Positions 17,920-35,866 of a stretch of 40,549 bases of DNA are shown here, one piece after another. The stretch is from Escherichia coli (lineage in GTDB: Bacteria; Pseudomonadota; Gammaproteobacteria; Enterobacterales; Enterobacteriaceae): NCBI RefSeq assembly GCF_003334765.1, contig NZ_QOWT01000035.1, one strand, 5' to 3'. How positions within the stretch are numbered: the first letter of the stretch is position 1; the number at the start of each line of letters is the position of its first letter. A model generated the notes under the pieces. It did not search any database. It was not told the origin of the DNA and was given only the letters and a program-made list of their open reading frames with translations. A program made the translations under genes and the position numbers.

Positions 17920-18064
17920 GAGGCCTTTGCTGCGACTGCCATGTTCGGGTCGCAGCATCGCACACTCTCCAACATGAAATGGCTAAATGGATTATTGTTG
18001 CGTAGGAAGGAACAATAATGATAGTGTTCCCAGTGAAGAAACGCTACTGAGAGTAAAGACACTA

Positions 18065-18349
18065 ATGAAAATGGCCAATCATCCCCGCCCGGGGGACATT
18101 ATTCAGGAATCACTGGACGAACTTAATGTCAGCCTGCGCGAGTTTGCCAGAGCAATGGAAATTGCTCCCTCAACGGCAAGCCGATTGCTGACAGGAAAAG
18201 CAGCTTTGACGCCAGAAATGGCGATTAAACTTTCCGTGGTGATCGGCAGTTCGCCGCAAATGTGGCTGAATCTGCAAAACGCCTGGAGTCTGGCAGAGGC
18301 AGAAAAAACAGTGGATGTGTCGCGATTACGCCGTCTGGTTACGCAATAA
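18065..18349 (+). CDS. yddM: HigA-like XRE-family HTH protein (putative orphan antitoxin), 94 aa
   Basis: ORF track gives a 120-aa ORF from 17987; the recalled YddM starts at the internal ATG ([17 protein letters not shown]...); helix-turn-helix region ([27 protein letters not shown]) visible. Confidence 0.75.
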
Positions 18350-18737
18350 AAAAATGGCACTTTATAAAGCGCCATTTAGAACTGATGACAAACGCAACAT
18401 TGCCTGATGCGCTACGCTTATCAGGCCTACACGTTCACTGCAATCTATTGGATTTGAAGGGTTTTCATGCCGGATAAGGCGTTCACGCCGCATCCGGCAT
18501 GAACAAAGCCTACGTTGTCTACAATATAAAAATGACGCCTTTTACAGCGCCATTTGAAACTGATGACAAACGCAACATTGCCTGATGCGCTACGCTTATC
18601 AGGCCTACACGTTCACTGCAATCTATTGGATTTGAAGGGTTTTCATGCCGGATAAGGCGTTCACGCCGCATCCGGCATGAACAAAGCCTACGTTGTCTAC
18701 AATATGAAAATGGCGCCTTTTACAGCGCCATTTTCAG
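18350..18737. repeat. tandem array (~2.2 copies of a ~178-bp unit) containing REP palindromic units and terminator-like hairpins
   Basis: Directly visible: 18350-18527 and 18528-18705 are near-identical, and a third partial copy of the AAAATGGCGCC...GCGCCATTTT hairpin lies at 18706-18735. Each unit carries two REP-type palindromes (GCCTGATGCGCTACGCTTATCAGGCCTAC and GCCGGATAAGGCGTTCACGCCGCATCCGGCA). Confidence 0.9.
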
Positions 18738-18755
18738 CTTAAAGTTCAAAAGAGA

Positions 18756-19409
18756 TTATATCCCTTCTTCACTCTCTTTTTTCGCTTCTGCCTTCTCGAT
18801 TTCACGATACCAGCGCGGATGGTGTTTCTTCGCCCAGCGACGACTTACCTTCCCTTCGATCATCCCTTTAATCGATCCTTTCACCCAAAATGCCATATAC
18901 ATATGGATCAGGATGGCGTGGATCAGGATGATACCCGCAGCCGCGTGGATCAGCAGGCTGTAGCGAACAACCTGCATCGGGAAGTACTGCGCAAAGTACG
19001 GACGCCAGATAATCACCCCGGTCACCAGCAGCACGAAAATCATGCTCATGATCGACCAGAACATCATCTTTTGCCCGGCGTTGTACTTACCGACATCCGC
19101 CACTTTATGCTCATTGCCTTTCAATACTTCGACAATGTTCAACAGCCACGGAATATCTTTCTTATCCGGGATGTTGTGATGCACAAAACGCACAAACATA
19201 AACATCAGTGCGACGAAAATCGCAATGCCGAAGAACGGGTGCAAAATGCGTCCCATCTGCGGCGTACCGAAGGTTTGCGTCAGCCATTGCAGCGTCGGGA
19301 AGAAGAACGAAATCCCGGACAGCGCCACCAGGAAGAAGCAAATCACCACGGTCCAGTGACAGGCGCGATCAATAAATTTGGTGCGCACAATCATTTTCGA
19401 CTTACTCAT
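18756..19409 (-). CDS. fdnI: formate dehydrogenase-N gamma subunit (cytochrome b), 217 aa
   Basis: ORF track gives 231 aa from 19451; start placed at [12 protein letters not shown]... to give the recalled 217 aa; overlaps the fdnH end by 8 nt. Confidence 0.9.
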
Positions 19410-35791: not shown

Positions 35792-35866
35792 CTGATGCGC
35801 TTCGCCTGTCAGGTCTACAACCGGGCTAATGTATGCCGGATAAGGCGTTTACGCCGCATCCGGCAA
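35792..35866. repeat. pair of REP palindromic units between convergent yddE and nhoA
   Basis: CTGATGCGCTTCGCCTGTCAGGTCTAC and TGCCGGATAAGGCGTTTACGCCGCATCCGGCA are close variants of the REP units seen at 18400-18500. Confidence 0.85.

Follow-up and report, generated by a model that had tools for sequence, protein, structure and literature searches.

A BIME-1 element and a terminator-like hairpin repeated in tandem between the convergent genes yddM and fdnI of Escherichia coli

The yddM-fdnI spacer and its parts

The window analysed here is a 40,549 bp stretch of an Escherichia coli contig (NZ_QOWT01000035.1, assembly GCF_003334765.1). In it the convergent genes yddM and fdnI are separated, stop codon to stop codon, by a 406 bp spacer that is filled by a repeat array. 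Tandem Repeats Finder reports 18344–18733 as a tandem array with a period of 178, 2.2 copies, 95% matches, 0 indels and a score of 717, and a gap-free repeat search gives full 178 bp copies at 18344–18521 and 18522–18699 that are 96% identical, with a partial third copy of 34 nt at 18700–18733. A chance origin of this repeat is ruled out, and the original prediction, that two near-identical 178 bp units and a partial third fill the space between the two genes, is borne out by these searches and by the open reading frames and their annotation. The window is 100% identical at the array to E. coli strain H3, and K-12 MG1655 has a 406 bp spacer of the same layout, one substitution apart, at 1551992–1552397. 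An assembly artefact was considered and rejected, because K-12 MG1655 and 946 complete genomes carry the same structure. A CRISPR array, with repeats of about 28–37 bp and unique spacers, was correctly ruled out from the start, since it is the whole 178 bp unit that recurs and no unique spacers are left.

The sequence of the spacer reads as H1-B-H2-B-H3, in which B is a BIME-1 element and H a copy of a putative bidirectional terminator hairpin. The features are as follows; those given as unstranded carry no strand assignment.

18065–18349, + strand: yddM (HigA-family antitoxin), the left convergent gene, an open reading frame annotated in the identical RefSeq locus and in K-12
18347–18349, + strand: yddM stop codon
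18351–18377, unstranded: H1, the first hairpin copy, AAAATGGCAC TTTATAAA GCGCCATTT, terminator-like on the - strand
18378–18530, + strand: BIME-1 copy 1, aligning as a whole element to BIME-1 copies at other loci
18378–18401: left arm of BIME-1 copy 1
18402–18430: z1 REP of BIME-1 copy 1
18431–18465: L linker of BIME-1 copy 1, with an IHF-like core at 18441–18453
18466–18501: inverted y REP of BIME-1 copy 1
18502–18530: right arm of BIME-1 copy 1
18529–18555, unstranded: H2, the middle hairpin copy, AAAATGACGCC TTTTACA GCGCCATTT
18556–18708, + strand: BIME-1 copy 2, with z1 REP 18580–18608, L linker 18609–18643 and y REP 18644–18679
18705–18736, unstranded: H3, the fdnI-adjacent hairpin, with a perfect 12 bp stem, TGAAAATGGCGC CTTTTACA GCGCCATTTTCA
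18756–19409, - strand: fdnI (formate dehydrogenase-N gamma subunit), the right convergent gene, an open reading frame annotated in RefSeq and K-12
18756–18758, - strand: fdnI stop codon

H is a 27 bp stem-loop, AAAATGGCGC(loop)GCGCCATTT, that lies between an A-run and a T-run; the 27 bp repeat copy of H3 alone is 18707–18733, and the longer interval listed above counts its extended 12 bp stem. Each unit had been predicted to open with a terminator-like AAAATGGCxC...GCGCCATTT hairpin, and such a hairpin is present, but H1 and H2 have one mismatch each and the stem is perfect only in the third copy. H2 has an H3-type loop (CCTTTTACA) and is fused straight to the left arm of BIME-1 copy 2. B is 153 bp long and is made up of a left arm (AGAACTGATGACAAACGCAACATT), a z-type REP (GCCTGATGCGCTACGCTTATCAGGCCTAC), a 35 nt linker, an inverted y-type REP (...GCCGGATAAGGCGTTCACGCCGCATCCGGC...) and a right arm (...AACAAAGCCTACGTTGTCTACAATATGAA), so that the two REP palindromes predicted for each unit are located in both copies. 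The "CAATAT" at the start of the unit, as phased by Tandem Repeats Finder, was considered as a copy of the yddM stop region and discarded; alignments place it at the end of the BIME-1 right arm.

BIME-1 elements have one y and one z1 REP on either side of a long, conserved L linker in which an IHF site is often present (PMC3333891); they are about 140 bp long, and isolates either have the whole element or lack it (PMC1187871). B agrees with this description in having one y and one z1 unit in opposite orientations, in its flanking arms, which align with those of all other copies, in its length of 153 bp against an expected 140–150 bp or so, and in being missing as a whole from yddM-fdnI in about 45% of 5,426 genomes; we infer the label "z1" for the REP at 18402–18430 from the published definition (PMC3333891). 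When a genome has no B here, the best matches of B's 144 bp core lie at other loci, over 97–99% of the query at about 85% identity. Alignment of B with the elements at entD-fepA, yajD-tsx, uvrB-yvcK and ridA-mgtA finds the arms, REPs and linker all similar, with the similarity ending at the hairpins. A scan of metagenome contigs with the 29 nt z REP found 120 loci, at which 64 matches are full elements of the B layout; the 64 group into 27 flank-clusters that represent about 23 distinct loci, and the arm-z1-L-y-arm order is common to the four fetched loci and these 27 further clusters.

B thus shares with the BIME-1 (RIB/RIP) family its architecture, about 85% identity over the whole element, an extragenic position between convergent genes and a presence/absence polymorphism. 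It differs in number: BIME-1 is described as a single-copy element (PMC3333891, PMC1187871), whereas two copies are present here, 0 to 4 are found across E. coli, and the array repeats the element 2 to 4 times together with its flanking hairpin. Its IHF core and the GTAG terminus of its y REP are mutated as well: the core reads TTGGATT against TTGAATT in the family (+ strand), the G being unique among 29 aligned copies, and the y REP ends in TCATGCC against GTAGGCC in 27 other copies, by which the y palindrome becomes longer. The 35 nt L linker aligns with those of the family; in its IHF-like core two positions depart from WATCAANNNNTTR, where the family consensus has a single mismatch. The array had been predicted to bind IHF, and a linker of the IHF-type family is indeed there, but its core is more degenerate than those of the 27 other copies; because of the extra mismatch, binding at the DNA level may be weak, and IHF binding as a property of the BIME-1 family is doubtful for the yddM-fdnI copy. 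An IHF ChIP report (PMC3333857) makes no mention of REPs. Both the kind of element and this instance of it are already catalogued, since EcoCyc annotates the REP core of copy 2 in K-12 as REP120 (1552072–1552168, equal to window 18579–18675; coordinates from the supplement of 10.64898/2026.03.23.713779).

Two observations concern the surroundings of the array. In B2-type strains (L006, 1–206) yddM overlaps at its start with a gene for a RelE/ParE-family toxin; the toxin gene is absent from the window (17920–18064) and from K-12, so yddM is an orphan antitoxin in both. Another REP pair lies at 35792–35865 of the window, where 33 nt match the y REP at 97% and a z-like sequence matches less well.

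Copy number and direction of change

The predicted variation of copy number between strains is seen on comparison of genomes, which have 0 to 4 units. Spacer lengths at the fetched loci differ in steps of whole 178 bp units:

50 bp: H only
228 bp: H-B-H
406 bp: two units
584 bp: three units, e.g. ETEC H10407
762 bp: four units, e.g. NT1W22 and YPE3

An 85 nt query spanning the B/H/B junction has full-length coverage in 946 of 5,426 complete E. coli genomes and matches at least in part in 2,999 of them. Unit number among these genomes is 0 in about 45%, 1 in about 38%, 2 in about 17% and 3–4 in about 0.5%, the last class comprising, as judged by match spans, at least 27 genomes among the matches listed, four of which were verified by sequence. 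A separate query for the empty allele agrees with the share of genomes that have no unit.

Several other arrangements were met at this locus. An allele with a 194 bp spacer (L008, L010) has one BIME-1 and has lost H3 by a 34 bp deletion between short A-rich repeats, which leaves fdnI without a proximal terminator; it accounts for roughly 2–5% of unit-bearing genomes, judged from the tail of the matches to the 85 nt junction query. APEC E12049 (L221), which has no BIME-1 here, carries an IS200C inserted exactly at the A-run 5' of the single terminator hairpin. Escherichia sp. MOD1-EC7003 (L020, 2155–2706) has an extra open reading frame of about 160 codons between yddM and its single hairpin, on the fdnI-sense strand, in whose translation we read by eye a NUDIX-like motif (GGGLEHNESFEEAALRELQEETG). 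In some E. coli genomes (matches H251, H252 and H271) similarity to the empty allele starts only at the hairpin, suggesting that these genomes share the MOD1-EC7003 arrangement.

At the fdnI loci of other species, Citrobacter spp. and Pluralibacter carry one homologous hairpin (AAAAATGGCGC...GCGCCATTTT) beside fdnI, and on this comparison the single hairpin appears to be ancestral. H-B-H is present in E. albertii and in a second Escherichia representative, with left and right hairpins that differ as they do in E. coli, so the occupied state would predate the E. coli-E. albertii split. In Citrobacter (L036, L038, L039) the stretch from yddM to the conserved hairpin contains one REP-like palindrome of its own, and the hairpin is not duplicated there.

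The empty allele could instead be derived, H-B-H having been fixed early in Escherichia and the unit having been lost by precise excision from the 45% of E. coli that now have none. The H-B-H of E. albertii and of the second Escherichia representative fits such a history, 27 bp direct repeats at a distance of 150 bp lend themselves well to deletion by slippage, and the polymorphism has been read in print as "excision of a whole BIME-1", as cited in the relevant passage of PMC1187871. The single hairpin of Citrobacter and Pluralibacter speaks against it, as does the empty-allele hairpin itself, which (loop TTCTTAAA) does not vary between phylogenetically distinct strains, recurs unchanged in Escherichia sp. 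MOD1-EC7003, differs at three positions from H1 and at three from H3, and is not a chimera of the two; indeed 0 chimeric single hairpins occur in a spread sample of about 2,400 genomes with the empty allele. We therefore regard a derived empty allele as unlikely. Because the empty alleles are homogeneous (at least 98.5% identity over 130 nt) and are not H1/H3 chimeras, ancestry of the single hairpin is favoured, and the simplest reading of these sequences would be an old polymorphism between a never-occupied and an occupied allele; some of the single-hairpin alleles may be recent precise excisions.

What lies between yddM and fdnI is very probably an array of BIME-1 and a duplicated terminator that arose by hairpin exchange and acts as a stack of hairpins at the convergent 3' ends. 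Before the separation of E. coli from E. albertii, one BIME-1 would have come into the ancestral spacer and would have ended up between two hairpin copies (H-B-H), and unequal exchange or slippage between the 27 bp hairpin repeats would then have given the 178 bp tandem duplication. H2 appears to be the recombinant junction of that duplication: since its H3-type loop is joined to the left arm of B, it may be the product of an H3 × H1 exchange between chromatids, inside the shared GCGCCATTT. Once two 178 bp units were present, homologous exchange between them would yield 1, 3 or 4 units. The second unit starts GAAACTG and one-unit E. coli alleles start AGAACTG, so the duplication may have involved two different one-unit alleles, or there may have been later changes.

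Tandem repeats of a REP doublet with flanking sequence are known from Pseudomonas fluorescens (Bertels & Rainey 2011, PMC3116915). The REPIN clusters of P. fluorescens SBW25, as described in the passages of that paper examined here, resemble the array here in that an inverted REP doublet and its flank lie head to tail in up to about four copies; they belong to another REP family and host, and duplication of a terminator hairpin is not described in those passages.

Hairpin folding, transcription and likely function

The predicted folding energies of the three hairpins and of the empty-allele hairpin, in kcal/mol, are:

fdnI-sense RNA: H1 -14.8 (then U7), H2 -13.6 (then U5), H3 -20.8 (then UUUUCAUAUU), empty allele -17.6
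yddM-sense RNA: H1 -10.2, H2 -6.4, H3 -18.7, empty allele -16.2

A single G-to-A change in H1, and another in H2, gives an A.C mismatch on the yddM-sense RNA and a G.U pair on the fdnI-sense RNA; in H1 the U7 follows on the latter. A GC-rich stem-loop with a U-run, as expected of an intrinsic terminator, is found in the copies on the fdnI-sense (-) strand, where H1 and H2 are flagged as terminator-like; in the yddM sense, H3 is the one strong hairpin. Compared with shuffled sequences, the whole spacer gives far more stable folds on either strand (z = -10.5 and -8.6). Between convergent genes, bidirectional intrinsic terminators have a GC-rich stem between an A-run and a T-run, and the single-hairpin allele is a textbook case; the array differs from an ordinary one in that the terminator is triplicated and interleaved with BIME-1, and in that H1 and H2, but not H3, have lost strength on the yddM-sense strand alone.

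REPs between convergent genes have general roles as terminators and as blocks to decay (10.64898/2026.03.23.713779). The supplement of the same paper places two features at the locus:

18616–18902 (K-12 1551845–1552131), + strand (yddM-sense RNA): in-vitro Rho-utilisation (rut) peak
18712–19345 (K-12 1551402–1552035), yddM-sense: bicyclomycin-sensitive antisense transcript

The two overlap at the fdnI-proximal end of the array, and their position there suggests that yddM-sense transcription crosses the array and needs Rho to avoid an antisense run into fdnI. From the folding, the U-tracts and the published Rho and REP data, the array is probably a multi-hairpin 3'-end module. The first terminator that the fdnGHI transcript meets is H3, and it would then pass two REPs, H2, two further REPs and H1 in turn. 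Since the three H copies are stable on the fdnI-sense strand and each is followed by a U-run, they would serve on that strand as putative fail-safe terminators and exonuclease barriers. The yddM transcript would pass two weakened hairpins, enter the array and stop at H3 or by Rho. As 45% of strains have the single hairpin only, copy number and extra units are probably neutral or weakly modulatory, and no essential role is implied by a unit that these strains do without. A literature search for 3'-end mapping of yddM and fdnI terminators found nothing relevant to the locus, and neither gene has an entry in the Term-seq supplement of PMC12207403.

A different reading makes the array BIME-2-like, with alternating y and z2 REPs whose main role would be to bind gyrase strongly and be cleaved by it, and so to organise the supercoiling between the convergent genes. 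Tandem inverted REP pairs that include the y type are present, the y REPs in BIME-2 are cleaved by gyrase (PMC6379681), and the tandem REP units in strain-variable number do recall BIME-2 and atypical BIME arrays (y + z2 REPs; S and s/l/r linkers; gyrase; naRNA4/REP325). Unlike these, the array has no z2 REP and no short linkers: a 35 nt L-type linker separates the REPs, both conserved BIME-1 arms are present, and against Rfam naRNA4, a y/z2-based model, the z-type REP scores 20 bits (E = 0.6) and the y REP 35.7 bits. The 178 bp period also takes in a non-BIME sequence, the locus-specific hairpin, and expansion here would be explained by the homology of the duplicated hairpins, in contrast to the BIME-internal repeats of BIME-2 arrays. 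The gyrase-enrichment literature examined documents BIME-2 and does not mention BIME-1. This reading is therefore very improbable, and the predicted gyrase binding does not carry over, because such binding is documented for BIME-2 (PMC6379681, PMC2817692) and the element here is BIME-1. In the same way the description "BIME-like array" is right as to the REP/BIME module, but what is repeated is one BIME-1 with its local hairpin and not an array in the BIME-2 sense.

That the repeat encodes a product, either an sRNA processed from the REP/L region or a protein of 43–50 aa, can be all but dismissed, for although there are matches to Rfam naRNA4 (35.7 bits, gathering score 59.5) and, at the L linker, to Rfam ES036/CssrF (30.9, gathering score 37.6), and open reading frames of 43 and 50 aa on the - strand, every Rfam match is below its gathering score and reflects common REP/BIME sequence, the small frames are translated REP palindromes repeated along with the unit, and the region is absent from nearly half of E. 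coli. The ES036/CssrF match of the L linker (18423–18465 and 18601–18643, - strand) is near threshold, and on account of this score the ES036/CssrF family may be modelled on a BIME-1 linker transcript.

Hairpin duplication around BIME-1 at other loci

At yddM-fdnI, BIME-1 is bracketed by two copies of a hairpin that is single in the empty allele, and the same is seen at uspB-pitA, where the occupied allele, found in 1,942 of the 5,426 genomes, is AAAAAAAGCGGGCCAGTAAACTGACCCGCTC–BIME-1–GCGGGCCAGCTGACCCGCTCGTTTTGG and the empty allele has the single hairpin AAAAAAAGCGGGCCAGTAAACTGACCCGCTCGTTTTGG. Direct repeats of 16–25 bp, each a terminator-like stem-loop, abut both ends of BIME-1 in 11 of the 27 flank-clusters, which correspond to 10 of the roughly 23 loci:

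uspB-pitA (L107, L219, L220): directly repeated hairpins
ridA-mgtA (L017, 377–566): directly repeated hairpins
metagenome loci L105, L111, L116, L121, L124, L146, L150 and L155: directly repeated hairpins

The flanking repeats score 8.5–22, and mismatched pairs of left and right flanks have a mean of 5.3 and a 99th percentile of 8.5 (n = 702). Ten of the remaining clusters have a hairpin at one end of BIME-1 only; at yajD-tsx, which is among them, the other copy is deleted in E. coli. Empty sites were sought at two further loci, and none was found for ridA-mgtA or for L146, which has a perfect 22 bp flanking repeat and is not from E. coli. At ridA-mgtA in strain TOK-001 (L018, 330–785; the arrangement of about 14% of E. 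coli) an unrelated 151-aa open reading frame annotated as "transposase" replaces BIME-1 and the hairpins; it has no NCBIfam match, and its C-terminal half is hydrophobic.

REPs and BIMEs are said to have no MITE signatures (PMC3184786, PMC2817692). Set beside a MITE, which has terminal inverted repeats and a target-site duplication, the element is a long imperfect palindrome and has direct repeats on both sides here and at 10 other loci; these, however, are 16–28 bp long, vary in length and are set by the hairpin structure. In sequence the flanking hairpin duplication looks like a structure-defined target-site duplication. We offer tentatively, as a possibility that falls somewhat short of an even chance, that BIME-1 inserts at intrinsic-terminator hairpins and duplicates the whole stem-loop foot to foot (16–28 bp), giving hairpin-BIME-1-hairpin. 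Staggered single-strand cuts at both feet of an extruded cruciform would produce this geometry, and a hairpin-recognising HUH nuclease such as TnpA-REP is a candidate for the cutter. No description of hairpin duplication around BIME-1 was found in the literature searched, whose scope did not extend to the primary papers of the 1990s, and the pattern may be new.

The array itself is of little weight, being an annotated REP/BIME of the reference E. coli of which nearly half of the strains have no unit. The locus could be used as a small length marker with 0 to 4 copies, and its alleles could provide a natural series in which to test the effects of BIME-1 and of stacked terminators on the 3' ends of fdnGHI and yddM. 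It is also a clear worked example of the duplication, in that the ancestral terminator has been kept in other strains and in Citrobacter and is duplicated around BIME-1 where the site is occupied. If insertion at terminator hairpins is true, the duplicated hairpins would be the first insertion footprint for REP/BIME elements, and would explain the position of BIME-1 at the 3' ends of genes as well as its later precise excision and tandem amplification, as at yddM-fdnI. If the pattern is general and unreported, it would make the spread of REP/BIME elements, a long-standing question, open to test.
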